Positions 4,533 through 62,361 of a stretch of DNA of 64,000 nucleotides are shown in pieces (the stretch's first letter is position 1; each line of letters begins with the position of its first letter). A program made the position numbers and the translations under genes. The stretch is from a bacterium (GTDB lineage Bacteria; Auribacterota; UBA3054), in contig JAGCTE010000015.1 of NCBI GenBank assembly GCA_017963805.1, forward strand, positions 122,350 to 186,349, read 5' to 3'. The notes below the pieces were generated by a model that did not search any database, was not told where the DNA came from, and was given only the letters and a program-made list of their open reading frames with translations.

Positions 4533-4931
4533 TCAATTCAGCTTGAAGGAGGAGGGGAGTAGGGCGGAGAGAGTCGTCTCCTGGTAGGTGCCGTCGGTCT
4601 TGGCCATGAGGATAATGAGGTCGCCCTTGGGGGAGAATTCCGAGAGCACTTGCCGGCAGATGCCGCAGGGGACGGCGAATTCGGTTTCGTTGTAGCAGAG
4701 GGCGATGGCTGTTGGATCCGCGCCGCCGTTTACGATCATGTTGCAAACGGCGGCGCGTTCCGCGCAGATGGTGGCGCCGTAGGAGGCGTTCTCGATGTTG
4801 CAGCCCGTGAAGACTGTTCCGTTCTTCGTAAGGATGGCGGCGCCCACTTTGAATTTGGAATAGGGGGCGTAGGCCTTTTCCCTGGCTTCTATGGCCTGAT
4901 TAACGAGTTCCTGCGCGGTCTTGGTATCCAT
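4533..4931 (-). CDS. cdd: Cytidine deaminase
   Basis: 132 aa. Zinc-binding motifs CAERAA and PCGICRQ. Its start codon abuts or overlaps the mksB stop. Confidence 0.85.
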   Translation of the reverse strand: MDTKTAQELVNQAIEAREKAYAPYSKFKVGAAILTKNGTVFTGCNIENASYGATICAERAAVCNMIVNGGADPTAIALCYNETEFAVPCGICRQVLSEFSPKGDLIILMAKTDGTYQETTLSALLPSSFKLN

Positions 4932-7900
4932 TATTTTTTGCCTTTCGGTTTTGATTTAGCTTTGGCTTTCGGCTTCGCTTTGGGAGCGGGCTTTTTGGCG
5001 GCGGGCTTTTTCACGGCTTTTTTCGGCGCCGCTTTTTTCGCTTTGGTTTTTGCGGGAGCGGGCTTCTTTTCTTCCTTGGGATCTTCGGGTTTTTCCGGTT
5101 CGGGAGCGGCTTTCACGCCGATGGTGAAGCTTTCCTCTTCGTCGTTCTGACTGAAGATGTCCATTTGCTGGCCTTCCTGGGATTCCCAGACGAAGTTGCC
5201 GATGAAGATCTCGTTATTGGCGTTCTTCTCGAGGAGCAGCGTTGTGGATTCCCTCATGGCTTCCGTGACGCCGTCCATTTCCGGGGTGGCGATGACAAGG
5301 GAGAGGCCAAGTCTGTTGGCGAAGCGCAGAAGTTCTTCCCTCCTTTCCGCGTCGATGCCGTAGAAAGCCTCGTCGAATAAGAGGAAGCGGATCTTGGCGC
5401 CGATCTGGTTGTAGAGAAGCGCGCTCATGGCCATGATGAGCAGGTAGTTCGGCACGGCCTGTTCGCCGCCCGATCCGAGGCGGCGGATGTCGTTCGTCAG
5501 CTCGATGCCCTCGCCCTCGGTGCCTGTCACTTTCACGTGCAGCTGGTAGTCGAACCAGTGGCGGTAGTCGAGGAAGGAGGGGAGAGAGCCGTCGGGCTGC
5601 ATGCGCAGTTCCCCGATCTTCGATTCGAAGAAGGCTTTCAGCTGTTCCTGGCTGTCCTCGTCGATGTCGCCGGCTCTTCTTACGATGCCGTAGACCTGGC
5701 GGTACTCCCCTTTGATCTTCTGGGTGAAGCGGTATTGGGAGCGGCCGAAAGAGAGGCCTTCCAGCATGAGGTTGACGGCTTCAAGACTTTCCTTGAGGCG
5801 GTAGAGGTCGCGGGTGTACTGGTTGGAGAGGTCGCCGAGGATGGTCTTTTCGAGAAGCTTCCTTCTGTTTTCGGAAACGGAATTCTCGAGCTGCGTTAGC
5901 TGGTCGTTCAACCTTGCCGTTATGGTCTTGAGGTCGCGGCCGTCCTGGTCGATGAGGTCGTTGATGTCTTCGCGGTAGGTGAAGGCGTACTTGGTCCAGA
6001 GCAGCTCGTGGTGGATCAAGCCGCCTTTCGAGCGGGAGTCGTCGCTGCCAACTAAGCTTCCGATCTCGCGGTTGATGACGCGCTCCTGGATCTTGATTAT
6101 TTCAGCGAGCCTGCCTTCCTGGACGTTCTCGGCGCCGTAGGTCTCCTTAAGGTAGCTCTCGAGGTCGGGGTATTCCTCGCCGAGGCGGTCCTCAAGGATC
6201 TTCTTCTTGTCGGCCGCCTGGTTGATGGCCTCGTTGTAGCTGAGTCTGGTCTTGGCGTTCTGGGCCTCTAAGATGGAGACGCGCTCTTTGTAGCGGGCGA
6301 TCATCTCGACAAGCTCCTCGCGTTCCTTTTCCTCGTCGTTCAAACGTTTCTTAAGGATGTCTAATTGCTTGTGGATGTCGCCGGTGGTCTGGAACTGCTT
6401 GTCTTCCCTGAGTTCCTTGATCTGCTTGGTTATCCTCGCGATCTGGCGCTGGGATCTGGCCTGCTGGCTCTGGGCCGTCTCGACTCTTTCCTTTATCTCG
6501 GCAAGGAGATTGTCGTTGGCGGCTCTCTGCGTCAAGCGGTGGGCGATGAGCCAGGGCGAGACTTTTTCCTCGAGCAGGATCTTGATCTTGTATACGGCTT
6601 CTATGGTCTCGCTGAGATTGCCCTGCTTTTTCCCAAGTTCGTCGGCGATGTTGGATAGCTCTTTGTTTTTGATCTTCTGTTCGGTCAAAAGTTTTTCCTG
6701 GGCGGCCTGGCGGCGCGCTTTGCCGAGCAAGCCTTCCGCTTCGCGCTTGACGTAGCGGTAAACGGCGCGTTCTTTCACAAGGCCTTCCCTGGAGAGCCAG
6801 TCGCCGTCGGGGGTGGCGGCTAGGTCGCAGATCCTTATCTTGCCGAGCTGCGTGTCGACGAAGCAGCGGGCGTAGCCGTTTGCCGTCTTCAAGTATTTGG
6901 CCAAAGAGTTTTCCAGGGGCTTCGGGCTCTTAGTGGCCATGAGCTTCGAGGTGTCGGCGATCCTGATACCGGGGTTGGCTTTGCCAGCCAACCTTATGAC
7001 GGCTTCGAGATCGTCCTCTTCGGGGATGATGGTGCCGAGCCACTCGTCGCCAAGGAAAGACTCTATGAGGTTCATGAGCTGGGGCGGCGTGTTGGGCGCG
7101 AAATCAAGCATGGTGAAGAGCGGTTCGGCTTTCAAGCCCTCCCTCTTTACGGCGTCAAGGAAATCGCGGTAGCCGATTATCCTCGGCATCACTTCCATGA
7201 TTGGGACGGAGGCTTTTATTTCGCTTTCCTTCGTGAGGTCGGCAAGGCGCAGTGTGAGCGTCTGCTTTTCGTCCCTCAGGGCCTGCAGAAGATTGTCGGC
7301 AGATCTTATCGCCAGCTTTTGCGAGCGGGAGAGCGCCTCGGTGTCGCATTCGGCCGTTTCCTCGGCGTTCTTGTAGGCTTTCTTCAGCGAGGCGACGGTC
7401 TTCGAGAGATGAAGGGCCGCTTCGTTCACTGTCTCGGGGCAGGTGGGAAGCGATACGGTCTTTATGACGGCGTTCTGGGAGCGGATGGCTTCCAATACGT
7501 CGGCGCCGGCGTTCGCCTTGTCTTTTTCAAGCGTGGCCTGCTTTTGCAGTTCTTTTTCCGTCTCTTCCTTGAAGGTGACGGAATCCTCTTTCAGTTTCGC
7601 CAAGTCCTTTTCAAGGCGTTCGGCTTCTTCCCAAAGTTTGGCGCCGGTGCCGGTCCGAACTTCGGCAAGCGTGGTCCTTGTCTGCTCGAGCTTGGGCAGC
7701 AGGTCGTCGAGCTTGTTCTTCGCGTCGATCTGGTTCTGGCGGTTGACGGCCACGGCCCTTTCCTGGCTCTTCAGTTCGGAGGCGAGGTTGTTGAGGGAGT
7801 TTCTCAGCCTCAGGTAGCGGCACTCCTCGATCCTTGTTTTTGAAGCGGTGATCTTGGAAACGGTCTTGTTTGCTTCGTCAAGAAGTTCGGCTTCTTTTTT

Positions 7901-8683
7901 TAGGCCTTTGATGTCGCTCTCTATGGTCTCGAGGTTCTGCAGCGTCGTCTCGATGTCCTGGAAGACCTGATGGTCGGGGGCGGGGAGAAGAGCCGCGAAG
8001 AGGCCTTCGAAGTCTCTGGCCTTGACGACCAGGTCCTTGTAGGATTTGCTGGCTTTTAAGAGATCCGCCACGCGCTCGAAATTTGAGCGGCCGCCGAAGA
8101 AGCGGTTCGCGACTTGCGTGCGGTAGCGGCCGATGTCGTAAACTCTCGTCTTGCCGATCAGGCCGGGCAGTTCCTTTTTGTCCACCGGGCGGTACTGGGG
8201 CGCTTCGGAAACGTCGTTCACCCTTATCGTAAGCTGGACTTCGGATAGGGGAGCGTCCACTATGAAGCCCCACATCTCGGGTCTTTGGTCAAGGTTTTCC
8301 GCGAAGGCGCCGACGCCGATCGTCACAGGGTTCTGGCTCTTGGGGTCGAGGAGCTCCAAGGCGACATATCCTACCGCGCCGCCGGCTCTGCCCACCTTGC
8401 CGGTCTCGAAGTTGTGCTGCAAAAGAACGCCGGAGAGGCTGCGGCCGGATTCGGACCTGCCGCCGATCACGGTGGCGGCGTTGAACATCAGTCTCTGTCC
8501 GCCGGTCAATGCCAGCTGCACCGCGTCGATGATGGTCGTCTTGCCGGTTCCGTTGTTGCCCATCAGAAAGAGGCTGCCGTGGATATTGATGGTCTCGTCA
8601 GCGAAGTTATGGAAGTTGATGAGGCGCAGGGCCCTTAAGTTCAAAGCGTTTTCCCAACTGTGGTTTCCGTTCATCGTGTTCAC
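4931..8683 (-). CDS. mksB: MukB-like SMC ATPase MksB (Wadjet JetC-like) with a C-terminal lysine/alanine/proline-rich histone-H1-like tail
   Basis: 1250 aa. N-terminal Walker A GNNGTGKTT, very long coiled-coil middle, C-terminal Walker B/D-loop LLFDEAFYGID. The last ~60 aa read KPAPAKTKAKKAAPKKAVKKPAAKKPAPKAKPKAKAKSKPKGKK. It is the third gene of the mksF-mksE-mksB operon. Confidence 0.8.
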   Translation of the reverse strand: MNTMNGNHSWENALNLRALRLINFHNFADETINIHGSLFLMGNNGTGKTTIIDAVQLALTGGQRLMFNAATVIGGRSESGRSLSGVLLQHNFETGKVGRAGGAVGYVALELLDPKSQNPVTIGVGAFAENLDQRPEMWGFIVDAPLSEVQLTIRVNDVSEAPQYRPVDKKELPGLIGKTRVYDIGRYRTQVANRFFGGRSNFERVADLLKASKSYKDLVVKARDFEGLFAALLPAPDHQVFQDIETTLQNLETIESDIKGLKKEAELLDEANKTVSKITASKTRIEECRYLRLRNSLNNLASELKSQERAVAVNRQNQIDAKNKLDDLLPKLEQTRTTLAEVRTGTGAKLWEEAERLEKDLAKLKEDSVTFKEETEKELQKQATLEKDKANAGADVLEAIRSQNAVIKTVSLPTCPETVNEAALHLSKTVASLKKAYKNAEETAECDTEALSRSQKLAIRSADNLLQALRDEKQTLTLRLADLTKESEIKASVPIMEVMPRIIGYRDFLDAVKREGLKAEPLFTMLDFAPNTPPQLMNLIESFLGDEWLGTIIPEEDDLEAVIRLAGKANPGIRIADTSKLMATKSPKPLENSLAKYLKTANGYARCFVDTQLGKIRICDLAATPDGDWLSREGLVKERAVYRYVKREAEGLLGKARRQAAQEKLLTEQKIKNKELSNIADELGKKQGNLSETIEAVYKIKILLEEKVSPWLIAHRLTQRAANDNLLAEIKERVETAQSQQARSQRQIARITKQIKELREDKQFQTTGDIHKQLDILKKRLNDEEKEREELVEMIARYKERVSILEAQNAKTRLSYNEAINQAADKKKILEDRLGEEYPDLESYLKETYGAENVQEGRLAEIIKIQERVINREIGSLVGSDDSRSKGGLIHHELLWTKYAFTYREDINDLIDQDGRDLKTITARLNDQLTQLENSVSENRRKLLEKTILGDLSNQYTRDLYRLKESLEAVNLMLEGLSFGRSQYRFTQKIKGEYRQVYGIVRRAGDIDEDSQEQLKAFFESKIGELRMQPDGSLPSFLDYRHWFDYQLHVKVTGTEGEGIELTNDIRRLGSGGEQAVPNYLLIMAMSALLYNQIGAKIRFLLFDEAFYGIDAERREELLRFANRLGLSLVIATPEMDGVTEAMRESTTLLLEKNANNEIFIGNFVWESQEGQQMDIFSQNDEEESFTIGVKAAPEPEKPEDPKEEKKPAPAKTKAKKAAPKKAVKKPAAKKPAPKAKPKAKAKSKPKGKK

Positions 8684-8688
8684 CTAAT

Positions 8689-9432
8689 TTAAAAATTTTC
8701 CTGTTCGTTCTCTTCTTCCGCCGTCTCTTCACCGTCGCTCTTCAGGCTGTCCGTTTTGGAATAGAGCCTGGCGATCTCCTTGAAGGTGAGGACGTCCGGG
8801 CGGTAGCAGTGGATGCCCGGGAGGAATTCGTACATTACCTGCTGCTCGAGGCCTTCCGGCAGACGCTCGTCCTTTCCGACGTCCGCTTTTTCCTTCTGCT
8901 CGATGAAGCGGTATTTGATGAGCTTCGGGAAGAGCGTGCGGCAGGCGTCGACGATCGCTTTCTCGCTCGATTCGCCGTCCTCGAGCTCCTCGTTGAAACG
9001 GTTAAAGCAGTACTGCACAAAGTCGGAGATCAAAAAGCGCAGCCTCTTGTCGTCGTCGTAATTGGAGTTGAAGTCGCGGAGCAGCTTCTCGTAGAATTCC
9101 AAGAGCAGCATGAAGACCGAGCACTCGTCCCTTCTCGTCAGGTCGAACATGTCCCTTTGCGAAGGCTTAAGGGAATTGTTGTAGAGCTGCGGCTTGATTA
9201 TCCTCGCGGCCTGGCGGTCGACGTAGAGCTCCCAGCCGAAGTAGCGCATGAAGAAATGGCCGACGGCTTCCTGGTTCAATCTCAGGTAGGCGAAGAGATC
9301 CGGGTCGTCCGTCTGGTAGAAGAAGGGCGATTCGAGAAGAATGTTGAGAAGCGCCCTGACGCTGTGGATGTTCAGAGAATCGATCTGGTCGGAGTAATTC
9401 TCCGCTTCGTTTTCAAAGTATTGTTCGTTCAT
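8689..9432 (-). CDS. mksE: MksE/JetB-like (MukE-like) condensin subunit
   Basis: 247 aa, acidic, helical. The size and its position between the MksF-like and MksB-like genes match DUF4194-type MksE. Confidence 0.6.
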   Translation of the reverse strand: MNEQYFENEAENYSDQIDSLNIHSVRALLNILLESPFFYQTDDPDLFAYLRLNQEAVGHFFMRYFGWELYVDRQAARIIKPQLYNNSLKPSQRDMFDLTRRDECSVFMLLLEFYEKLLRDFNSNYDDDKRLRFLISDFVQYCFNRFNEELEDGESSEKAIVDACRTLFPKLIKYRFIEQKEKADVGKDERLPEGLEQQVMYEFLPGIHCYRPDVLTFKEIARLYSKTDSLKSDGEETAEEENEQENF

Positions 9433-9438
9433 AGTTTT

Positions 9439-10980
9439 TTAGTTGTTTTCCTGAAAGTCTACGGTGTAGTCGGGGGAGGAGAAATACCATTTGCCTCCCT
9501 TGAACTCGGCCTGCGGCGCGTTTTTGTCAGGCTGCTTCAAGGTGTATCCCAAGCGGATCCCGTGCTTGCGTCCTATCTTGTAGAATTTGACGGAGTCCAT
9601 GTAGTTCCTGATGTCGTCCATGTTCTTCAAAGAGAACAAATGGATGGGGCCGCGTTGTCCCATGGGGTATGCTTTCAAAAGCATGAAGTCCCTTAGGCGT
9701 TTGGCCTTTGCCTTCTCCAGTTCGCGGCTGGCTTGGGCGGAGCCGGTCTTGGCGATTATGGCGGCGTTGCGGAAGGGCGGCCTGGCCGCGCGGCGGCGCC
9801 AGTAGTTGGGCCTCGGCGGGGGAACGCGGTCTTCCGGAGTGCCGCCGCCCATGTCGTTTATGATCTGTCCTACGGAGAAGAGCTCCCTTAGGAAAGACTT
9901 GATCTCGGGCAGGGCTTCGTCGGGAGCGCCGATGCATTCGTTGGCGCGGCGGCGCAGGATCCTGATCCTGATGTTGCGGTGCCTGATGTCGTCGAGGTAC
10001 TGCCTGATGCGGCTGATAAGTATCCTGACCTGCTCGTTGACTCTCAGGCAGAGGAGCTGGAAGATGCCTTCGGGAGCGAAGAAGGGGATAAGCCTAGCCA
10101 GCATCTGCTCTATTGGGTCCTCCTGCTCGGCCAGGGCGCCGGACAAAGGATTGTTCTCGGCGTGCAGCCTCATCGCTTCCCTGGCGTTCCTCAAGATGGC
10201 GAGCCCCTGCTGGGAGTTCCAGCGCGACAAAGCGCTGTAAACAGGCGGCGTCAGGTTGGCCACGCGCTGCAGATACTGGTCGACGTAGCGGGCCAGGCGG
10301 TCTATTATCTGCGGCAGAGTTTCAAGCTGGAAAGGCTCGATGTTGAAAGTCGCTATCCTGGCGCCGAAGTCGCTGATCTCGTTGGCGACCAGGCGGCAGC
10401 GGTTGTCGAGCTCACTTATGTTCCTTGCGAGCCTGCGCAGCTCCGTTTCCGAAAGATTTTCGCCGCGGGAGAGGCAGAGGCCGATCTTTTCGACGAGCTC
10501 CTGGAGGTCCAGGAGGTGGTCCTGGTCAAGCGAGACCGCGTTCAGGTTTTCCACTGAGCGCATGAGTGAAAGACTCTCGAGCAGCGCCCTGGTATGGTCG
10601 GTCAGGCGGTAGAGGAATTTCTGCACTCTCCTGTCGGCGATGTGCTGCAGCCTCTTCGGCTCGATGCGGCGCTCGACGTTGCCCCAGAGCATAAGCTGCT
10701 CCATGTCGGCCCGGAAGGCCTGCTGGCTGTAGGGGCCGGCGGTCTCCAAAAGCGACTGGACGGCGTCGTAGATGTCGTTGTGATATTTCTCGACTTCATG
10801 GGCCTGGCGGCGCAGGAAGAGGAAATACAGAATGGTGGCGTAATACCACCTGCGCTCGGAACTGAGGAAGGCGCAGTGACTGACTGGAAGCAGGTCCAGA
10901 AACGGAGGCTCCGGCGCCACAGCCTGAAAAAGATCGGGCTGCGGCGCGGGATCGATCTGTTCAATTATATTGTTGTCCAT
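9439..10980 (-). CDS. mksF: MksF/JetA-like (MukF/kleisin-like) condensin subunit
   Basis: 513 aa, first gene of the three-gene operon. The size and predicted helical nature match DUF3375-type MksF. Confidence 0.6.
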   Translation of the reverse strand: MDNNIIEQIDPAPQPDLFQAVAPEPPFLDLLPVSHCAFLSSERRWYYATILYFLFLRRQAHEVEKYHNDIYDAVQSLLETAGPYSQQAFRADMEQLMLWGNVERRIEPKRLQHIADRRVQKFLYRLTDHTRALLESLSLMRSVENLNAVSLDQDHLLDLQELVEKIGLCLSRGENLSETELRRLARNISELDNRCRLVANEISDFGARIATFNIEPFQLETLPQIIDRLARYVDQYLQRVANLTPPVYSALSRWNSQQGLAILRNAREAMRLHAENNPLSGALAEQEDPIEQMLARLIPFFAPEGIFQLLCLRVNEQVRILISRIRQYLDDIRHRNIRIRILRRRANECIGAPDEALPEIKSFLRELFSVGQIINDMGGGTPEDRVPPPRPNYWRRRAARPPFRNAAIIAKTGSAQASRELEKAKAKRLRDFMLLKAYPMGQRGPIHLFSLKNMDDIRNYMDSVKFYKIGRKHGIRLGYTLKQPDKNAPQAEFKGGKWYFSSPDYTVDFQENN

Positions 10981-11064
10981 AATCCCTTCTTATACGAATA
11001 CACACTCAATATATTGTATCAAAAGGGCCTTTTTTTAACAATATATTGGGCCGAAGGGAGGGGA

Positions 11065-11517
11065 TCATCTGCGGGAGGCAAAGAAATCCTTGAGAAGGTT
11101 CTCGCATTCAAGGGAGCAAAAGCCTTCCAGCACCTCGACTTTGCCGCCCGTCCAGGTGTTGGCGAGGTTGGCGTTCGACAAAAGGGCGCCCCTTTCCCAG
11201 TCGCGCGCTCCGAAAACGACGGTTTTGATTCTTGAGAGAAGAATGGCTCCGGCGCACATGGGGCAGGGCTCCAAGGTAACGTAAAGCGTGCAGTTGGTCA
11301 GGCGGCGGCCTAGCTTTTTTTGAGCCTCCTTTATGGCCAGGAGCTCCGCGTGGGCGGTGGCGTCTTTTTTCGCTTCTATAAGGTTGTGGGCGGAAGCGAC
11401 AACGCTGCCGTCCGCGTCAACGATGACGCAGCCAATGGGGACTTCGCCAATTGCGGCGGCCGCTTCGGCCTCTTCGATCGCCAGCAGCATGTGACCTTTG
11501 TGTTCCATGGAAAACAT
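11065..11517 (-). CDS. tadA: tRNA-specific adenosine deaminase
   Basis: 150 aa. Has the HAELLAI and PCPMCAGAI zinc-binding motifs. Confidence 0.9.
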   Translation of the reverse strand: MFSMEHKGHMLLAIEEAEAAAAIGEVPIGCVIVDADGSVVASAHNLIEAKKDATAHAELLAIKEAQKKLGRRLTNCTLYVTLEPCPMCAGAILLSRIKTVVFGARDWERGALLSNANLANTWTGGKVEVLEGFCSLECENLLKDFFASRR

Positions 11518-11593
11518 TTTACCAAAATCATAAGCGGTAAATTTGCTATAATGTAAGTTTGACAGTAAGAATCCACACCAAAAGAGGTAATTT

Positions 11594-14206
11594 ATGAAAA
11601 AAGGATCTATTTTTCTCCTGACGGCCCTCGCTTTCGCCGCGCTTTTGTCGTATGCGGAACCGACGGTCTTCTTTACGGAAAATTTCGAAAGTTACGATAC
11701 GGGCGATTTTCTGCCGCAGTGCGAAACAGCCGTAATTTACCAGCCCAAACACCAGACGAACTTCGCCTACAAGGTCGAAAGCGGCGTCATGGATACCAAA
11801 TGTATTACCGTAACTAAGAACGACCCCGACAAAGTCAATTCCGGCGATTCCGGCGTCTGGATCCCCACTGGCGCCAGCGAGGAAATGTTCACCGAGACCG
11901 GCGTCATGAGGATACGTTTGAAACACCGCTCCATCAGCAACATCAGCGGCTTCATATTCGGCAACGGCGCAAGCGGCCGCGCCATTTGGGCCTACCGCAA
12001 CGGCGGCACCTTTTACATCAAAAGGGACAACGACGGCAAGCACGATATCCAGCTGACGGGCATCGGCGGAGACAAGGACAACGAACTGGAATTCAACATC
12101 CAGTATCCCTCCCGTCGACTCATCAACGTCATAGCTAATGGGGTGACCAACACTCCGGATAATTTTACATTTTCAAACGTTAGGATAACGCATATCGGTG
12201 TGGCAGTTATGGCCAACGGATGGATAGCTGAGGGCAGCGGCTACGTTACGGCCGTAGACGACATCGAGGTCGCTTATGAAGCGCTGACCACGCCGGAGGT
12301 CTACGTATCGACTGATCCTCTGCTTATCGGACGCCAAGTCGCCAGCCGCGATTTCGTCATAGCCAACAACGGCGGCGGCGAATTCACTTACACCGTCTCT
12401 GCCCTGGGCGATCCGGAATGGCTCTCTTTCGCCCCCACCGGCACTTGTAAGACCACCAAGAGCCACAAGGTGACCTTCAACCGCGATGTCATGGGCGACG
12501 GCTTCTACCGCACGATTCTGACTTTTGACTGCTCCCCTTACGGAGTATTTGACATCCCTCTCAAAATAAGGTCTGGCAAAGTTTTTTATTATGAAGATTT
12601 CGAGCAGCCTTATATGCAGCCCGGAGAGATACACGGGCAGCAGGATTGGTTTGGCAAAGAGGAAGGCAACGAATATTCACCTGAGACAAACGAGGCCTAT
12701 GTGAACACGCCCAGCGATCCCTGGGACGGCCAGTGCCTGACTGTGGAAAGAGCAGGCGGCTGGGACGGCTACTGGGTGCCCATATGGACGCCCTCCAACC
12801 TGATTATCAAGGTCTCCTGCAAATTCCGTTGGGATTTTGCCAACGATTCCGATCACTTCCAATTCCGTTCCAGCTATTGGATGAATCCTGCCGTGTTTCA
12901 CATTGAGTACACTAGCGGGAATGAAATAAAGCTCTGGGGCTACAACGACACTGCCGGTTATCCTCTGGTCGGCGAATATGGACTGCCAGGCGGAACATGG
13001 CACGATATGTCCTATACTATGGACTTCAGGATGCATACTTTAAATGAACTCACCTTCGGTGATTTCAAGACAAACTTTAATAATATGCCGCTGAGGAAAA
13101 GGATGAACGACAGAGTCGTGCCGGTGTTGTATTATGAGAAATTTGGATTTAGTTCCGGCTCATATGATGACAACGGAAAACTCGGCGTCTCAATCGACGA
13201 CCTCCTTATTACGGAAGTCGAGCGTCCCAAGATCTCCATTCCCGTTTACGAAAAAGCGGTCGCGATGGGCGGTTTGAGCCTTTACACCAACGTTTTGGAA
13301 AACGCCGGCGCCCAGAACTACAAGTTCACCGCCGAGGTCCTGGATTATCCGGACAACTTGAAACTCTCCCGCTACAAAGGCTCTATCGGCACCAAGGGCT
13401 TGGTCCTCTACAGGCTTGACCGCAAAGGCCTTGCGGACGGCTACTACACCGCCAGGATCAAATACGATTGGGTCGCCTCCAACAGCACCAACTCCGGCTC
13501 CTTCGTCCAGCTCGTGACCTTCGGCGTCGGCGGCTGGTACTACGCGACCGAGTTTGAGGGCGAACCCTTCCATCTCGGCCCCATCGACGGCCAGGAATGC
13601 TGGAAGATGGAATACGCTTACGGAGACATCGATCTGAGGCTCTTTAACGGCATCCAGTGCCTCTATTTCGACCAGGCCGGCAAAGCACAGGTTTCCGCCG
13701 GCGTTCCGGCCCAGAGCCATTACTCCTTCCGCTGCCTTGTCAACCTGCCGGACAACAACAACACGACCTACCTTAGGTTCTGCCAGAACACCGGCGAAGG
13801 CTTTTTGCCTTTCTTCATCAGGAGGGACAGGACATCCCATGAGGTCGTACTTGGCTACAAGCCAGCCGGCGAGGACGATGTCGTCGAGCTTATGAGGAAC
13901 AGCACGCTCGGCAAGTGGCAGACCTTCTCCTACACCATGGACCTTGACGAAGCCAATTCCTGCGTTACGCAGGTCACGCTTGGCGATTACGTGAAGGATT
14001 GCTATGTCGGCGAGATCGTCCTCAACACCGAATTCGACGGCCAGCCCATTTCCTCCTTCAGCATCGAGGCCGTGAACGACGGCCCGGACGAGGAAAGGGA
14101 CACCGGCGCCTACATCAAGAACGTTGTGGTCTGCGACCATACGCTCCCCGAGCCGGCCATCTTCGGTCTGCTTGCCGTCTCGCTGCTTTTGCTTCGCAGA
14201 AAATAA
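11594..14206 (+). CDS. Large secreted PEP-CTERM surface protein (paralog 1 of 4), three copies of an internal module plus Ig-like domains
   Basis: 870 aa. Has a signal peptide and conserved module starts FTENFESYDTG, FYYEDFEQPY and YYATEFEGEPF. The C-terminus reads LPEPAIFGLLAVSLLLLRRK (PEP motif, TM helix, basic tail). Confidence 0.8.
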   Translation: MKKGSIFLLTALAFAALLSYAEPTVFFTENFESYDTGDFLPQCETAVIYQPKHQTNFAYKVESGVMDTKCITVTKNDPDKVNSGDSGVWIPTGASEEMFTETGVMRIRLKHRSISNISGFIFGNGASGRAIWAYRNGGTFYIKRDNDGKHDIQLTGIGGDKDNELEFNIQYPSRRLINVIANGVTNTPDNFTFSNVRITHIGVAVMANGWIAEGSGYVTAVDDIEVAYEALTTPEVYVSTDPLLIGRQVASRDFVIANNGGGEFTYTVSALGDPEWLSFAPTGTCKTTKSHKVTFNRDVMGDGFYRTILTFDCSPYGVFDIPLKIRSGKVFYYEDFEQPYMQPGEIHGQQDWFGKEEGNEYSPETNEAYVNTPSDPWDGQCLTVERAGGWDGYWVPIWTPSNLIIKVSCKFRWDFANDSDHFQFRSSYWMNPAVFHIEYTSGNEIKLWGYNDTAGYPLVGEYGLPGGTWHDMSYTMDFRMHTLNELTFGDFKTNFNNMPLRKRMNDRVVPVLYYEKFGFSSGSYDDNGKLGVSIDDLLITEVERPKISIPVYEKAVAMGGLSLYTNVLENAGAQNYKFTAEVLDYPDNLKLSRYKGSIGTKGLVLYRLDRKGLADGYYTARIKYDWVASNSTNSGSFVQLVTFGVGGWYYATEFEGEPFHLGPIDGQECWKMEYAYGDIDLRLFNGIQCLYFDQAGKAQVSAGVPAQSHYSFRCLVNLPDNNNTTYLRFCQNTGEGFLPFFIRRDRTSHEVVLGYKPAGEDDVVELMRNSTLGKWQTFSYTMDLDEANSCVTQVTLGDYVKDCYVGEIVLNTEFDGQPISSFSIEAVNDGPDEERDTGAYIKNVVVCDHTLPEPAIFGLLAVSLLLLRRK

Positions 14207-18475: not shown

Positions 18476-18530
18476 TTTTCTTTTACTTGATTTTTTTGTA
18501 TAATGTTTGCGGATAAAAAACGAGGTATTT

Positions 18531-20354
18531 ATGAGACGAATTATTAAATTTTCCCTTTTTCTTTCTTTAGTTTTCATGTCATATGTTTGCTTTGCAAACG
18601 AGGATATGGATTTTTCTTCAAACTTCGAAAAAGAAAAAGATCTGCTTGAACGGATAACGAAACTTCAGGCTCAAGTAAAAGACATAAAAGGGCAATACAT
18701 TTCAATAACTTCCCAATTGGAGAAGATACAGTTAAACATTCCTAAAGGACTTGTAAATTTTCCAGACCTTTTTGTCATTAATGATGACACGCTTGTTGTC
18801 GGGCCAGACGGGAATATATATTATGACGGATATGATGTAAGAAACGTTTTATGTTCTATAAACGGTTATTACGAAAGCGATAATTCAACAAACAATACTG
18901 AGCAAACAAGATCGGGATATGTTACGACTGAGCAATTTAATCAATTGGCTAGTCTTGTCTTTTCGTTAAGCGCCAATTGCCAGACGCTTAGCAATAATCT
19001 AAGTTCGATATCAAATACTGTTTACAATATTACTCAGCAAATGAGCATGATGGCGGCTACTGTACAGTATTTATCAACTCAGTGCGAAAATCTCAGTCAA
19101 AAATGTGACCTGATAGATTCTGCAATAGACATAAAAGACGACGGCAGGATAGTGATGAACGCCACATCTCCAATAATAGGAATCATTGAACCTAATTTCA
19201 CACCTTCACTTTATTCTTATCCTTCTATTTGGAGTTGGGATGGAATATGTACTAAATTTAACGTTTCGACTAACTCGCATTTGAAAAGCATAACTTTGTA
19301 TTGCAATGATATCAATAAAATAATGTCACCAGAAAGCGTTTACGTTTCTACTGGTGTTCCCAATAATGGCAGCTATCAAATGGCCTATTGGTACTGCAAT
19401 AGCGTAAATACCAATAGATTTCCTTTGTGTACTTACTCTTTTTCAAACCCAATCCTTATTAGGTCCGACAGGTTCCATTTATTAGGAATACGAAAAATAG
19501 GTAATAACCTTATATATCCATATGTTTGCAATGGATACAGGAATGGCGGATTGTACAAGCCTTATGGAGCAAACGAGTCTGAACTTCCGGTGAGGGGAGA
19601 TGATCCGCCTGATCCTGGACCTAGGGTTGGGCCATCAGATCCGCCTATGACATTGTCAGAATTTATGAACATGACATTTGAGTATTATTGGGAACCTTGT
19701 TTCGATTCATATGAGTTATGGTCTGTGTTCAATTTTGTTGAAGACGTCGGATTTACCTTTGATAAACACGGACTTGAATTGAAAAGCGGAGATATATCGA
19801 TTGCAGGAACTAGGGTTGTAACTGATGAAAGCCTTGGCGTAGCATTAACCAACAAAGCGGAAGTTTTAGGAGGGAAAATATCTTGGGATTCTTTTTGCCA
19901 AGGATTGAAAGATTATCTTATTACTGTTAACGGCGGAACAATAACTGGAGAATTGTACATTGAAGATCTAATTTTGCCTAACAATGGCAGTTGGCTTATA
20001 GGAAATGCCACGACTAGATCAGATATAAAAATTAACAATCCTAATGGATGCATAACGACATCTTCTGGTGATTTAAATTTGGCTTGCAATGGAGAAGATA
20101 CAAAAATAATTGCACATGATTTTGTGCAGTTTAGCGATTCAGAACAATGTGGGAAAGTGGTTATAAGTGCTGGTAGCACTTCTGTGTCAATTGCATCAGA
20201 TCTTTCTTCGGATGCAGTTGTAACTGTAACCCCCTCTCAACAAACAGATGTCAAATACTGGGTTGAAATCAACAGTCTAGGCGATGGATCGATAGTTATA
20301 GATGATAGAACAAACTGTGATTTGAGTTTCTTTTACATGATTATGAGAAAATAA
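18531..20354 (+). CDS. Island protein 1: secreted protein with an N-terminal coiled-coil and a beta-helix-like Cys-containing C-terminal region. A paralog starts at 62362
   Basis: About 607 aa from MRRIIKF. Has a signal peptide, then a heptad-like stretch LERITKLQAQVKDIKGQYISITSQLEKIQ, then short repeated beta-strand-like units. Confidence 0.55.
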   Translation: MRRIIKFSLFLSLVFMSYVCFANEDMDFSSNFEKEKDLLERITKLQAQVKDIKGQYISITSQLEKIQLNIPKGLVNFPDLFVINDDTLVVGPDGNIYYDGYDVRNVLCSINGYYESDNSTNNTEQTRSGYVTTEQFNQLASLVFSLSANCQTLSNNLSSISNTVYNITQQMSMMAATVQYLSTQCENLSQKCDLIDSAIDIKDDGRIVMNATSPIIGIIEPNFTPSLYSYPSIWSWDGICTKFNVSTNSHLKSITLYCNDINKIMSPESVYVSTGVPNNGSYQMAYWYCNSVNTNRFPLCTYSFSNPILIRSDRFHLLGIRKIGNNLIYPYVCNGYRNGGLYKPYGANESELPVRGDDPPDPGPRVGPSDPPMTLSEFMNMTFEYYWEPCFDSYELWSVFNFVEDVGFTFDKHGLELKSGDISIAGTRVVTDESLGVALTNKAEVLGGKISWDSFCQGLKDYLITVNGGTITGELYIEDLILPNNGSWLIGNATTRSDIKINNPNGCITTSSGDLNLACNGEDTKIIAHDFVQFSDSEQCGKVVISAGSTSVSIASDLSSDAVVTVTPSQQTDVKYWVEINSLGDGSIVIDDRTNCDLSFFYMIMRK

Positions 20355-20356
20355 AA

Positions 20357-22930
20357 ATGAGATTCATACCATTAAAAACAAAAATCATATTGATTTTTAT
20401 GGCATTAATGTGTTCGCTAATGATTTTCGCGGATAATGATCATTTTTATTATTACTATTGTTTTAATAGAAATTCTATGACTAATGTTGCCATGGGTTTC
20501 CCGTTTGGGATTTGTGAAATCATCCAAAGCAAATTATGGATTAAAGTGGAAGGTCAAGGACATTTACCTACATTTATAGCGAATGTACCGTTGGAGAACA
20601 AAACGGCGACTGATGTTATATATAATGACTCTCAGGGAAATGAATACTTTCCGGATCGTGATTTTAAATTAGTGTTTCAATGGGATCAGGTTGATTATGA
20701 AGACATAGAGGCTGAAGATGAAGTTAGAGGGGATATATTAAAAGAATATTATGAAGATCCAGCCATAACAATATTACACGATGTCGATATTTATTGTTTT
20801 ACCCCGAATTACACCGCATACTGTATTGAGATGGATAATAGCAGTAATGTTAAAATGGAAATATCTGATAATAATTTAAATTATGTGCCATGCACATTTA
20901 CAGATAATATAGAAACTACTATTGGATCTGGAAACAATCATAAAAGATATTACAAAACGGATTGGATTAGAAATCACAAGTATTATATAAAAGTCTATGG
21001 TCATGATGAAATTAACGATTATTATTCATCGGTACATGATTATAGTTTTACCATTAGAAGCGTTAAACCTATCGTATTAGTACATGGCATTAATTCGCAT
21101 CCTATAGATTCTAATGATAACAAGACAGCTTTTGAATGCATAAAAAAACATTTACCTAGAGCTGATGATCTTGACCCTATTTTACCTCTTGATTTTCCGT
21201 GGAATGATTCAGTGGGGGAATATACAGATTATTGTTTGAATGACAACTACTCTTTGTCAACTTTTATAAATAATAATTGTCAATATCTTGATAAAAAACC
21301 AATTGTGATTTCTCATTCGATTGGTGGCATGTTGATAATGAGACAAATTATTAATAACGATAACATATTGGGTAAAATTGACAAATTTATTTTTTATGGA
21401 ACTCCTTTTTGCGGTTCTGATAAAGCAAGCTGGTGGCTAACAAAAAATATACATATAACAAGCAACGATAATTTAAATCACCTTAAAAGGGGCTCTAAAC
21501 ACATTTGGAATTTGCTATCTAATATTCCGTCTTCATTCATCAATGATAAGCAGTCCACCTATTTTTATGGCAGCTCTGGATTTATGTTCTTCTTAGTATA
21601 TGGCGGTATTGATAGTGATAGCGTTGTATCTATTTCGTCTGCAAATTTGCCCGCAACTTTAGGTTTATCTTCTCTGGCAATATCCATTGACAAGAATCAT
21701 ACAGATATGAAGAAGTTATCATTCCCTTGTGAAGAAGAAGATTTGGTTGTATACAATATTTTAAAGGAATACATTAACGAATCTCCAGATAATAATACTG
21801 TAAATAATATATTTGATCCTTTATTGCGATTTTTTGGAGAATATAATTCCGCCATTGAACTACAAATGATTGATTATCACGATTTTGATTTTTATGAAAT
21901 TGAATATAGAGATTCAAATTCCGGAACGGAAGATTGGACAACATTAAGAATAGTTGAGGGTGATATTGAAAACAACTTAAACTATTATCATAGTGGAATT
22001 CTAAATTATGATAGCCAGCCAATTTTGATTAGATTAAAAAGTGATCATTTAGATAAAGTCAGTGATATACATTCTGTTAATATTAATGCTGGTAAAACGA
22101 CTTTTTTTAAAATGAAAATTATTAACGGAATTGCTGGCGATGATGTTATTTCACATTCTCTTAGTAATGATTCTTCTCTTCCGTTTTATAATATTCAGTT
22201 TCGTTTAAAAAATTTACCTAGACCTTGGATTAAATTCAAATTGTTGTCGCCCCCTAGACATCATAGAGAATCAAGACATTTAAATGTTAGATGGGAATGT
22301 GTTGATAATAGTAGATCTGGCGAAGACTATTCTATTTGGCTAGTTGTTGGATCGCAAAATAATAATGTTATTGATAGAATCAACGTTACAAATCTAACAT
22401 CCTATAATCTGAGCTTTTCCGATTACAATATGCCTCAAGGAGAGTATTGGTGGAAACTTGTTGCTGAGAATAATACAGATGATTTGGTTGAAAGCGAAAA
22501 GCGACCTTTTCATGTGGTAAATCAAGACTATTTTGATGACTCTGACGGAGATGGCTATGATGATTATGAAGAGTATATAAGGCACTCCAATCCGTATGAT
22601 GCAAACGACATTCCATTAATAATTGATTCTGGTGAAATCTGTCCCTTAGCATATTTAGATCAACAATACTTTTATAAAATAGAGACCAGTTTCAGAAATA
22701 ATATTTCATGGAGTTATAGAGGAAAGTTGCCAGAAGGAATAAAGCTAAGTCACAATGGAATTTTAAGCGGCATGTCAAAAGAACTTGGAACTTTTAATTT
22801 CACAATTCTTGTTTGCGGTCCTGGGCTAAAAGAAGATCAAATCAATATGACCTTGGAAACTTTAATACCACCAAATTCTGAAGTTACAACTGGAACTGGA
22901 TATTTTAAATCAGAAGGAGAAGAAGAATGA
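20357..22930 (+). CDS. Island protein 2: secreted multidomain protein with a lipase class-2/PGAP1-like alpha/beta-hydrolase core, an FN3-like segment, an EF-hand-like loop and a C-terminal putative-Ig (He_PIG-like) repeat
   Basis: 857 aa. Signal peptide. PIVLVHGINSHP (oxyanion region) and VISHSIGGMLI (nucleophile elbow) sit ~80 aa apart, as in Bacillus LipA. Also DSDGDGYDDYEE and LPEGIKLSHNGILSGMSKELGTFNFTI. Confidence 0.6.
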   Translation: MRFIPLKTKIILIFMALMCSLMIFADNDHFYYYYCFNRNSMTNVAMGFPFGICEIIQSKLWIKVEGQGHLPTFIANVPLENKTATDVIYNDSQGNEYFPDRDFKLVFQWDQVDYEDIEAEDEVRGDILKEYYEDPAITILHDVDIYCFTPNYTAYCIEMDNSSNVKMEISDNNLNYVPCTFTDNIETTIGSGNNHKRYYKTDWIRNHKYYIKVYGHDEINDYYSSVHDYSFTIRSVKPIVLVHGINSHPIDSNDNKTAFECIKKHLPRADDLDPILPLDFPWNDSVGEYTDYCLNDNYSLSTFINNNCQYLDKKPIVISHSIGGMLIMRQIINNDNILGKIDKFIFYGTPFCGSDKASWWLTKNIHITSNDNLNHLKRGSKHIWNLLSNIPSSFINDKQSTYFYGSSGFMFFLVYGGIDSDSVVSISSANLPATLGLSSLAISIDKNHTDMKKLSFPCEEEDLVVYNILKEYINESPDNNTVNNIFDPLLRFFGEYNSAIELQMIDYHDFDFYEIEYRDSNSGTEDWTTLRIVEGDIENNLNYYHSGILNYDSQPILIRLKSDHLDKVSDIHSVNINAGKTTFFKMKIINGIAGDDVISHSLSNDSSLPFYNIQFRLKNLPRPWIKFKLLSPPRHHRESRHLNVRWECVDNSRSGEDYSIWLVVGSQNNNVIDRINVTNLTSYNLSFSDYNMPQGEYWWKLVAENNTDDLVESEKRPFHVVNQDYFDDSDGDGYDDYEEYIRHSNPYDANDIPLIIDSGEICPLAYLDQQYFYKIETSFRNNISWSYRGKLPEGIKLSHNGILSGMSKELGTFNFTILVCGPGLKEDQINMTLETLIPPNSEVTTGTGYFKSEGEEE

Positions 22931-25323
22931 AACTAGGCAAATCTTTAGTTATTGTTATTTTTTTGTTGATATTAAGCGCTTGGTCAACATCAAATTCTTA
23001 TTTAAATAAATACCCTGGCATAGTTGCTATAACTACCAAAAGTGGAAATGCATTATTCGGAAAAAGGGACGAGAACAAAATTTTCCTTAACAAGGGGGAT
23101 CTTTATGAGGAATGCGATGGATGCGGATATATATACGAAAAATACGGTTTTATAGATGACATGACCAGAAGTTTTATTAAAGAAAATATCGAGCCGTCTA
23201 GAACGCCGTATAAAAATGTTAATAAGGAGTTGGAAAAACAATATGATGATTTTCAATCCGTAATCAGAAGTAAAAAACTGCCCGATAATTGGGTTGATAA
23301 CCCGGAAGGTCGTTATCAGTCTATTAAAGAAGGACTTTTAAGGGAGATCGATCGTTTGAAGGTATCCGGAAATTCCAAAGCAGACGAAAAGATAAAACAG
23401 CTAAAGGCAGAATATGCCTTTTATACGAACCGATATAGCGATTCAAAAATATTTGAAAAAATATCAGATCCTGACTTTGACCTTGATCAGGATGGATTAA
23501 CCAATTTGGAAGAATTCTACTGTCAGTCAGACCCTCTTGTCAGAAGCGGGCTTGCCGTATCTCCGGCTTTTTATAAATTTACTCTTAACGACAGTCTTGT
23601 TTACACCGGTAAATTCAGTATTGCAAATTTGACAAACACCAACAGGACATATTCTATTTACAGTAGATATCAAAGTTCTGATAATCGTTATGCTCCCAAA
23701 ATCGTACCGCTAAATTCTAAATTTTGCGTAGATAAAAATGGTTATATGGTGTTTAACATACCTCCAAAATCGAAGCAGTATTTTTTGTATCTGTTAAATG
23801 CTGAATATCTACCTTATTGTTTTGGCAATCTTTATAGTGTCAGCGTAAGGATTAAAAACGATTTGGGATTTATGGGGACGGATCTTGGAAATGTAGTTTT
23901 TTATATGTTTGGCAACAAGGGGTCCGAGATTTCAAAGACGGATAATCTTTATCCGAAATCCGGCGCAAGATTACAGCCGGAGAACAATACTCTTTCATTT
24001 ATATGGAAATCTGGTGAGCGCAATATTTCGAAGAATAGAGAGGAAGAGATAAGGTATGTTATACAGTTTTATAATGCGGATAAAAAAATGGCTTTTGATT
24101 ATTTCTGTTTTACAAACAAGTTTTTTGCTCCGGCTAAGAATGATCTCAATACTTTCTCGCCAGGCATTTATTTTTGGAGAATCATAAAGCAAGATGCATT
24201 CAGCGCCCCTGCTTGTTCAGATTGGAATTGGTTCTCCATAGGGAAAAAAGCAGACGAAGGCTGCTCAAATACATTGGAAAAAGGAAAGAGATTAATTCCG
24301 GAGAAAAAATATAATTGTGGAATAGCCTATTACGATATGTATAAAGGAATTCCATTTGATTTTGATATTTGTCCGCTGAAAGCTTCTGAAAAACAACCTT
24401 TCATTTACAAACTTCCAAAAGATTTTGAATGTTTTTTCGATGACAATTATTGGCATTTAAAGGGAACCCCTCATGAAGTCGGAAGATGGACAAACATGTG
24501 GTTCCGTATTAAGGCGGATAGGGCCTGGACTAACATTTGTGTTTTTAGTGTTTATGATCCTGCCGAAGAGATTTTGTCGCGTTCTTTTTACGATTTGGGT
24601 AAGAAAGCTGTTGTTCATGATTTAACAGTTGATTATCGATTCGAATATCCATTGCAAAGTTATTTTGATATCATTTCTAAAACTTCTGATACCGTTTTAA
24701 GCAAAGATTATTCTGTCAAGATCTCACCAGATCTTCCGGATGGATTGACTTTATCATTTGAAGACGGAAGATATATCATATCCGGTATTCCTAAAAATGT
24801 CGGCGAGTTTATTGCAGAAATAACTTATGAAAAGGATAATTTGCTCAAAGAAAAGCATATTTTTAATATACGCACAAGCAAAAATCCCAAGCCGCTTACT
24901 TTTGCCGAAGAGTGGAATGTCGTTTACCTAAGCGAAGAACCTTGGGGGCATTACCAATATTTCATGGTGGGGTTTAAAAAAGGAATGGTCAGGCATATTT
25001 TGAGCGATGAAAAAAGTGTCAGATATCCTTTATCTCTAGATTATCTAGCGTATGGGAGAAAACGTATTATGCTTGATTCTTATGAAACTAGTTTTGGACA
25101 AAAGAGGAGAGCATATAAAAAGCACGACGAAAATCAGCAGGAAGTAGAATTGTTATCGCCTCTCCCCAACGGCATAAGGTTAGAAGAAAGCGACGGCAAA
25201 TTTTACCTTGAATGTGAATTGCGTTCAGTTGGAGCTTTTACGAATCTTATCAGGATAGTCAGTCAAGATGGCGTATATACAAACATGCATATTTTCAGAG
25301 TAGAAAAAGTAAAAACCCAATAA
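22927..25323 (+). CDS. Island protein 3: secreted protein with an EF-hand-like loop and several putative-Ig (He_PIG-like) repeats
   Basis: 798 aa. Signal peptide. Its start overlaps the gene 2 stop (ATGA). Has DLDQDGLTNLEE, and repeats LPDGLTLSFEDGRYIISGIPKNVGEF and LPNGIRLEESDGKFYLECELRSVGAF. Confidence 0.5.
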   Translation: MKLGKSLVIVIFLLILSAWSTSNSYLNKYPGIVAITTKSGNALFGKRDENKIFLNKGDLYEECDGCGYIYEKYGFIDDMTRSFIKENIEPSRTPYKNVNKELEKQYDDFQSVIRSKKLPDNWVDNPEGRYQSIKEGLLREIDRLKVSGNSKADEKIKQLKAEYAFYTNRYSDSKIFEKISDPDFDLDQDGLTNLEEFYCQSDPLVRSGLAVSPAFYKFTLNDSLVYTGKFSIANLTNTNRTYSIYSRYQSSDNRYAPKIVPLNSKFCVDKNGYMVFNIPPKSKQYFLYLLNAEYLPYCFGNLYSVSVRIKNDLGFMGTDLGNVVFYMFGNKGSEISKTDNLYPKSGARLQPENNTLSFIWKSGERNISKNREEEIRYVIQFYNADKKMAFDYFCFTNKFFAPAKNDLNTFSPGIYFWRIIKQDAFSAPACSDWNWFSIGKKADEGCSNTLEKGKRLIPEKKYNCGIAYYDMYKGIPFDFDICPLKASEKQPFIYKLPKDFECFFDDNYWHLKGTPHEVGRWTNMWFRIKADRAWTNICVFSVYDPAEEILSRSFYDLGKKAVVHDLTVDYRFEYPLQSYFDIISKTSDTVLSKDYSVKISPDLPDGLTLSFEDGRYIISGIPKNVGEFIAEITYEKDNLLKEKHIFNIRTSKNPKPLTFAEEWNVVYLSEEPWGHYQYFMVGFKKGMVRHILSDEKSVRYPLSLDYLAYGRKRIMLDSYETSFGQKRRAYKKHDENQQEVELLSPLPNGIRLEESDGKFYLECELRSVGAFTNLIRIVSQDGVYTNMHIFRVEKVKTQ

Positions 25324-62247: not shown

Positions 62248-62271
62248 ACCGGCATAATCAAAAACCGAAAC

Positions 62272-62309
62272 AAAAAAAGGCGGAGGAATTTTTCCTCCGC
62301 CTTTTTTTG
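62272..62309 (+). terminator. Rho-independent terminator
   Basis: GGCGGAGGAATTTTTCCTCCGCC followed by TTTTTTT. Confidence 0.65.
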
Positions 62310-62310
62310 T

Positions 62311-62339
62311 TTGACATTTTTGGAGAAACATTATACAAT
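62311..62339 (+). promoter_or_regulatory. Near-consensus sigma70 promoter (TTGACA, 17-nt spacer, TACAAT) driving the second copy of island gene 1
   Basis: Hexamers and spacer read directly. AAAGGAG sits 8 nt before the ATG at 62362. Confidence 0.55.
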
Positions 62340-62361
62340 AATAGAGAAAGGAGTGGCTATT

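Follow-up and report, generated by a model that had tools for sequence, protein, structure and literature searches.

The DNA analysed here, referred to as the window, is a stretch of 64,000 nucleotides from contig JAGCTE010000015.1 of GenBank assembly GCA_017963805.1 (positions 122,350 to 186,349, forward strand). On its minus strand lies a three-gene operon, jetABC, for a kleisin, a KITE subunit and an ATPase of the structural maintenance of chromosomes (SMC) family. The subject of this report is the C-terminal tail of the ATPase, a JetC/MksB-like protein, which is rich in lysine, alanine and proline and is built from an acidic spacer followed by a basic block. The tail, the operon and the adjoining gene were located as follows.

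4934..5110, minus strand: whole JetC tail, 59 amino acids (aa), residues 1192-1250, after the conserved anchor FTIGVK
5069..5110, minus strand: acidic Glu/Pro-rich spacer AAPEPEKPEDPKEE, residues 1192-1205, 14 aa
4934..5068, minus strand: polycationic Lys/Ala/Pro block, residues 1206-1250, 45 aa, with 21 Lys and no acidic residue
4931..8683, minus strand: jetC/mksB-like gene for an SMC-family ATPase, 1250 aa, assigned from Pfam, PADLOC and motifs
8689..9432, minus strand: jetB-like gene for a KITE subunit, 247 aa, matching DUF2398 (4.9e-09) and PADLOC JetB2
9439..10980, minus strand: jetA-like gene for a kleisin subunit, 513 aa, matching DUF2397 (1.2e-17) and PADLOC JetA2
11013..11041, minus strand: sigma-70-like promoter match TTGTTA-17-TACAAT with TG, a consensus match only
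4533..4931, minus strand: cytidine deaminase gene cdd, the ATG of which overlaps the jetC stop codon (TAATG)

Translation of the minus-strand open reading frame (ORF) at 4931..8683 gave an uninterrupted protein of 1250 aa with the C-terminus ...SFTIGVKAAPEPEKPEDPKEEKKPAPAKTKAKKAAPKKAVKKPAAKKPAPKAKPKAKAKSKPKGKK*. In agreement with the preliminary description of this DNA, which had quoted the C-terminal peptide, positions 4934-5115 correspond to the last approximately 60 codons of this ORF. The same description had named an MksB-like SMC ATPase as the host protein, and this was evident from the best PADLOC match to JetC (3.7e-70), from Pfam matches to AAA_29 and SbcC_Walker_B and from the intact Walker A (GNNGTGKT at residue 42), signature (LGSGGE at 1069) and Walker B (FLLFDE at 1100) motifs, each of which was invariant in 16 orthologs. 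NCBIfam TIGR02680 also matched JetC, under its cutoff. Translation of jetC could begin at GTG in position 8683 or at an ATG three codons 3' of it.

Close orthologs of JetC were taken from three clusters formed at 90% identity, the listed members of which were 84-94% identical; with the window and the loci L001 and L002 these gave 31 full-length sequences. The sources were independent ruminant-gut assemblies in NCBI, ENA, JGI and Logan, with contigs of up to 1.4 Mb, and the related genome records were metagenome-assembled genomes from sheep rumen and yak omasum. The tail was present and in frame in all 31 full-length orthologs (at least 84% identity), with no premature stop. The comparison of orthologs for presence and length of the tail that had been proposed earlier thus found it throughout, at 58-88 aa, and neither of the outcomes named as counting against the tail was seen, i.e., neither an artefact of a frameshift or missed stop (the ORF is uninterrupted and the tail is in frame in 31 of 31) nor its absence from orthologs. 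These results confirm that the tail is a genuine, lineage-specific extension of an SMC-type ATPase.

Among the 31 sequences were 25 distinct versions of the tail, and that of MBP5626828.1 was identical to the tail encoded in the window. All 25 ended in K(P/T)KG(K/R)K. Their composition was 35.9% K, 24.9% P, 22.4% A, 9% E and 0.6% R, corresponding to a Lys:Arg ratio of 60:1, and their net charge ranged from +13 to +25; H1-type DNA-binding tails likewise contain Lys far above Arg. The number of basic residues (K+R) was 23-29, with a coefficient of variation of 0.06, compared with 0.12 for tail length and 0.45 for the number of acidic residues. The acid-free block measured 44-62 aa and carried 20-26 basic residues. 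Given a composition limited to Lys, Ala, Pro and Glu, the tail is predicted to be disordered.

Variation was unevenly distributed along the tail. The spacer was the hypervariable portion and in orthologs reached as much as 34 aa, made up of (EP)n/(AP)n, while the conserved portion was the end of the Lys block, ...KPAPKAKPKAKAKSKPKGKK, comprising approximately the last 20 residues. In a codon alignment of jetC from four genomes, columns 1201-1250 showed the lowest conservation in the gene (amino acid identity 0.61 compared with 0.89 overall), whereas identity in the last 22 columns (0.87) was close to the gene average. Among identical residues, the fraction of identical codons was 0.85 in the last 22 codons and 0.72 in the whole gene. 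Indels between orthologs in the tail were in frame.

At the DNA level, Tandem Repeats Finder (TRF) reported a single weak array in the tail (period 15, 2.1 copies, score 50), and a repeat search identified a few short imperfect direct repeats of 15-21 nt. As candidates for tandem pentapeptides of the PAKKA type, only the weak 15-nt-period array and scattered imperfect repeats were seen. From these results the tail DNA is a cryptic repeat rather than a clean microsatellite. The preliminary description of the DNA as a simple repeat prone to length change was therefore correct as to length, which varied in frame, but not as to the cleanness of the repeat. When all six frames were scanned across the 64 kb, the tail was the sole stretch with at least 12 Lys per 40 residues, and at this threshold the jetC tail was again the sole stretch in related loci of the same clade. 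A general Lys-rich trend was rejected for this reason, as far as the window and the related loci are concerned.

The wider family was drawn from a representative search of 1.84 billion proteins, which gave 757 members at E<1e-10. None of 12 orthologs at approximately 50% identity had a Lys-rich tail, and these proteins terminated 0-6 residues past the anchor. A Lys-rich end was also absent from the approximately 90 full-length 50%-identity representatives outside the query's own cluster, most of which had short acidic or proline-containing ends, and in this respect the earlier view that such a tail is unusual for the family held. The tail is thus confined, among the relatives examined, to one narrow ruminant-gut clade. 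In one of the representatives, P0037 (1190 aa), an Arg/Ser-rich C-terminus (...TSRRITTGTTQRSRRRRSSVSVRR...) was noted where relatives have the head motif GDVHLAPYHYWN; it is probably the product of a frameshift in the source assembly and not a basic tail.

The preliminary description had also likened the tail to histone H1, chlamydial Hc1/Hc2 and Pseudomonas AlgP. This likeness was upheld for composition but not for homology, as Pfam searches with three tails alone matched no family at E<=10, and the whole JetC-like protein matched neither a linker-histone nor an Hc1 domain at E<=0.01. Membership of the tail in the H1, Hc1 or AlgP families was rejected on the former result. Fusion with an adjacent small H1-like gene was rejected as well, since no Lys-rich small ORF was present near jetC in ten tail-less loci. 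The latter finding favours a de novo origin over gene fusion, and the tail may have arisen by a shift of the stop codon together with slippage.

The proteins encoded upstream of jetC indicated the kind of machine to which the tail belongs. The match of the JetA-like protein to DUF2397 exceeded the Pfam cutoff, as did that of the JetB-like protein to DUF2398, of which positions 2-81 of a 363-position profile were covered. Scores of the JetA-like and JetB-like proteins were under the cutoffs of NCBIfam TIGR02677 and TIGR02678 which, with the similar result for JetC and TIGR02680, points to a divergent branch. The JetB-like protein ends in an acidic run (...DGEETAEEENEQENF, ...SDGEETAEEENEQENF; 8689..8730, minus strand). 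Co-evolution of this acidic end with the JetC tail was considered and rejected, as the acidic end was also found in the tail-less locus L003. The promoter match sits in an 84-bp spacer upstream of jetA.

The 37 window ORFs that were scanned included no JetD or Toprim protein, and JetD was likewise absent at the inspected loci L002, L003, L007-L012 and L015-L017, which represent five sublineages of the clade, although a JetD gene may exist elsewhere in these genomes. The slot occupied by JetD in sister Wadjet operons is held by cdd, an arrangement shared with L001, L002 and L007-L010. Orthologs at approximately 50% identity, from lake and other metagenomes, also had jetA-jetB-jetC without JetD, among different housekeeping neighbours (dxr, pgm, purE, tilS and glycosyltransferases). 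The nearest sister clusters, by contrast, belong to complete four-gene JetABCD operons. A DUF2399/JetD_C gene came next downstream in P0018, the following gene in P0019 matched PADLOC JetD1 (1e-23), P0020 had JetD together with surrounding PLD-helicase, HNH and SNF2 genes, and JetD was located divergently upstream in P0026; in P0022, an overlapping downstream gene was interrupted by the contig end. By comparison with these sister clusters, the query clade derives from a Wadjet subfamily and lacks its JetD.

Genes identified around the operon were rpe, phosphohexomutase (pgm), prmA, GNAT, cdd, tadA, bamA, rnf genes, ligA, gdh and a bat operon. The order bamA-tadA-(870-aa gene)-jetA-jetB-jetC-cdd...prmA-pgm-rpe recurred on inspected contigs of the ortholog P0002 (14 contigs, the longest listed being 1.4 Mb; synteny was read from four places shown, with ten similar). 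Vertical inheritance in such a housekeeping neighbourhood makes the complex look domesticated, and from gene content and order it is apparently a JetD-less, domesticated Wadjet derivative. It may function as a chromosome condensin in the manner of MksBEF.

Given the TAATG overlap of the jetC stop and the cdd start, jetC and cdd are probably co-transcribed and translationally coupled; no minus-strand terminator-like site was found between them. The overlap of the jetC end with cdd was noted in all tail-bearing genomes seen and not in tail-less lineages. Two zinc-deaminase genes flank jetABC, namely cdd and a TadA/MafB19-type gene (11065..11517, minus strand) upstream of jetA. The segment that contains tadA and the 870-aa gene (window 11065..14206) is inverted relative to the P0002-type genomes, as read at L007 (4320..7489) and L002 (3849..7489). 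In the window, tadA lies immediately upstream of jetA and points the same way, and the 870-aa gene faces away; in L002 and L007 it is the corresponding 875/881-aa gene that shares the orientation of jetA, with tadA facing away. The 870-aa protein (11594..14206, plus strand) carries a signal peptide, its C-terminus is a hydrophobic anchor (...LPEPAIFGLLAVSLLLLRRK) resembling a PEP-CTERM sorting signal, and no match to the protein was obtained in Pfam, NCBIfam or PADLOC. It was rejected as a conserved partner of the complex or a substitute for JetD: it is secreted, and although L007 has a version with 76% identity, the 670-aa gene product in the equivalent position of L011 is unrelated.

Elsewhere in the window, a low-GC island was noted at 18507..25323 (plus strand; GC 0.32-0.41 compared with a background of approximately 0.56). 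In the island are three large ORFs in tandem (615, 857 and 798 aa). The N-termini of their products resemble signal peptides, neither Pfam nor PADLOC gave a match, and they probably encode horizontally acquired secreted proteins. GC also fell to 0.41 at the end of the window (62001..64000). The nearest named relatives of the ligA product, at approximately 50% identity, were from Chlamydiota, Omnitrophota and Planctomycetota, which hints at a deep lineage related to the PVC group.

Taken together, these findings lead us to favour, with moderate confidence, the reading that the genuine tail of this JetD-less, apparently domesticated, MksBEF-like JetABC complex acts as a non-specific electrostatic DNA tether; the direct DNA anchoring put forward in the preliminary description is likewise an inference. 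The TonB (EP)n(KP)n rod is extended and polyproline-II-like, and the Glu/Pro spacer of JetC would form a comparable extended, probably polyproline-II-like linker. Such a linker would project the cationic block (approximately 45-60 aa with approximately 23 Lys) away from the ATPase head, where the block, with a charge of approximately +21 to +25, could contact the DNA backbone non-specifically. With two such flexible tethers on every JetC dimer, the local affinity for DNA would rise, and the tethers might help loading, anchor one side of the extruded loop or lengthen residence or processivity. The near-constant number of basic residues, the conserved terminus, the clade-wide retention of the tail in frame (31/31), the excess of Lys over Arg and the precedent of Lys-rich tails on actinobacterial HupB, Ku and TopA are in favour of this reading, on which the tail would bind DNA and influence the motor.

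Several points weigh against a tether. Relatives that have the same operon but no tail evidently manage, and the machine can therefore do without it. The clade in which the tail occurs is narrow, and the proximal half of the tail is hypervariable and of low complexity, the type of sequence made neutrally by replication slippage. Removal of the Lys-rich tail from Ku raised affinity for DNA, and it does not follow that more lysines mean tighter binding. In addition, it was not possible to map the JetC C-terminus onto a known JetC or MukB structure and so to locate it with respect to the DNA-clamping surface. A search of solved structures with the JetC sequence matched none, a family-profile search of solved structures gave Walker-A-level matches to PtuA/Rad50 and spurious coiled-coil matches to haemagglutinin only, and an AlphaFold2 model of residues 801-1250 from a 16-sequence alignment (mean predicted local distance difference test score 42.9, predicted template modelling score 0.25) was too poor and was not used. 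As to the proposed role as a chromosome condensin, the loss of JetD and synteny are the only pointers to it.

If the tail does not act as a tether, it may be a tolerated and functionless by-product, in which case the stop codon after ...FTVKT was lost, translation read through to the start of cdd and slippage expanded the new A/G/C-rich segment without harm. We consider this explanation unlikely but worthy of attention, as tail-less orthologs stop 0-6 residues past the anchor, the tail terminates exactly at the TAATG overlap with cdd, its proximal half is the most variable stretch of the gene, cryptic 15-nt periodic repeats are present, it occurs in a narrow clade, and tail-less loci have no adjacent H1-like gene for fusion. 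Harder to reconcile with a lack of function are the retention of the tail in frame, with no premature stop, in 31 of 31 orthologs, a count of basic residues held at 23-29 while length shifts by 30 residues, conservation of the terminal 20 residues like that of folded domains, and a composition of nearly all K, P, A and E with segregated charges. A stop-loss origin is compatible with later recruitment, and origin therefore does not decide function. Somewhat behind the by-product explanation, and also improbable in our view, is a regulatory or localisation element, in which the block would dock on its own E/P spacer, on acidic JetB or on the kleisin and so gate the ATPase or DNA loading; in a variant of this explanation, the block would bind RNA, polyphosphate or anionic membrane lipid. 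The acidic spacer does adjoin the basic block, JetB has its acidic C-terminal run, and in Ku there is a precedent for a Lys tail that lowers DNA affinity (PMC3553676). Against this, the acidic end of JetB in the tail-less locus L003 indicates no co-evolution with the tail, direct evidence for an alternative ligand is lacking, and DNA is what the machine acts on and, of the polyanions nearby, the most plentiful.

Two further explanations do not require a function of the tail as a peptide. The 3' end of jetC could be conserved as the translation-initiation region of the overlapping cdd, as might be expected from the conserved TAATG stop/start overlap and from the higher codon identity at conserved residues over the last 22 codons (0.85 compared with 0.72 for the whole gene). 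The excess of synonymous conservation is modest, however, and a constraint of this kind accounts for the last 20-30 nt or so at most, leaving the constant Lys count of a 45-60-residue acid-free block in 25 sequences unaccounted for; we regard it as very improbable. An artefact of sequencing, assembly or annotation, i.e., a frameshift or missed stop, has a negligible likelihood. Such artefacts do occur in databases, as P0037 illustrates, but none was found for this tail, and the same frame and the C-terminal ...KPKGKK were obtained in 31 proteins from NCBI, ENA, JGI and Logan with no in-frame stop.

In a more far-reaching version of the tether reading, the tail evolved adaptively once a plasmid-defence Wadjet motor had been domesticated, and a built-in anchor on the SMC head, indifferent to sequence, would make the complex a self-sufficient chromosome condensin. 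After the loss of JetD, such an anchor might allow permanent one-sided anchoring or loading independent of a loader. We hold this version to be improbable; if true, the locus would represent a natural SMC motor with a histone-like DNA tether in a deep-branching lineage. If, on the other hand, the tail were a neutral product of slippage, it would be a curiosity only. By what mechanism SMC loop extruders keep hold of DNA as they reel it in is still an open question, and a JetC/MksB with a tether of approximately +20 charge offers, with its tail-less relatives at approximately 50% identity, a natural comparison for studies of loading, anchoring and processivity. The locus is also of interest for its apparent independent loss of the Wadjet nuclease and its housekeeping settlement, which is the route proposed for MksBEF/MukBEF.

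With the anti-plasmid SMC system Wadjet JetABCD (also named MksBEFG or EptABCD), the complex shares its gene order and three components, namely the JetC-type ATPase, the kleisin of the DUF2397 family and the KITE of the DUF2398 family. It differs in lacking the JetD Toprim nuclease (DUF2399/JetD_C) in five sublineages, in having housekeeping rather than defence-island neighbours and in the polycationic tail on JetC. The KITE of type II Wadjet is tandem, with approximately 388 aa and four winged-helix domains (bioRxiv 10.1101/2025.03.10.642339), whereas that of the query is single-sized (247 aa) and not tandem. Short KITEs of 220-291 aa that match only the N-terminal 80-100 or so positions of DUF2398 were noted in the subfamily (window, L013, L014 and L018-L020). 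In this subfamily the kleisin and KITE belong to type II-like families, yet the KITE is of single size and JetC obtains its best scores from type I models.

MksBEF/MukBEF, including MksBEF of P. aeruginosa and mycobacterial MksB, resemble the query in being encoded by an operon for three subunits (SMC, kleisin and KITE) that lacks a nuclease gene. The query operon scored only 16.3 bits against DUF4194 (cutoff 32.7), which with DUF3375 we take to be the canonical MksE and MksF families, respectively, and its kleisin matched DUF2397 only. These scores, together with the DUF2397/DUF2398 partners, indicate that the query is not an ortholog of canonical MksBEF, and JetD thus appears to have been lost independently in the query clade. 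The proposed origin of MksBEF/MukBEF is a Wadjet system minus JetD, with a role in chromosome organisation (PMC10586767, PMC11329512). The literature found for mycobacterial MksB did not mention a Lys-rich tail, and literature searches located no bacterial SMC, MksB or JetC protein reported to carry one, which does not prove that none exists.

The tail itself can be compared with two groups of proteins. In common with the C-terminal domain of H1, with Hc1/Hc2 and with AlgP, it has K far in excess of R, abundant Ala and Pro and a high positive charge; it differs from them in having no detectable homology and in being the appendage of an enzyme rather than a stand-alone nucleoid protein. Closer parallels are the tails of HupB/Hlp, Ku and TopA, which are also low-complexity Lys/Ala/Pro extensions at the C-terminus of a folded DNA-transacting protein and which, in actinobacterial HupB, Ku and TopA, are likewise lineage-restricted and variable in length. 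Actinobacterial tails of this kind are known to modulate DNA binding, bridging or processivity (PMC3553676, PMC7398561 and the HupB tail paper). In TopA, high processivity of the actinobacterial enzyme is attributed to lysine repeats (PMC7398561), and removal of the Lys-rich tail of M. smegmatis Ku was the treatment that raised DNA affinity (PMC3553676). In contrast with the HupB, Ku and TopA tails, that of the query is carried by an SMC ATPase in an uncultured ruminant-gut bacterium, its repeat unit is only loosely periodic, and its basic block comes after an acidic E/P spacer. The system is, therefore, an unusual variant of a common trick, the Lys-rich tail, on a new host protein and not a new kind of system.

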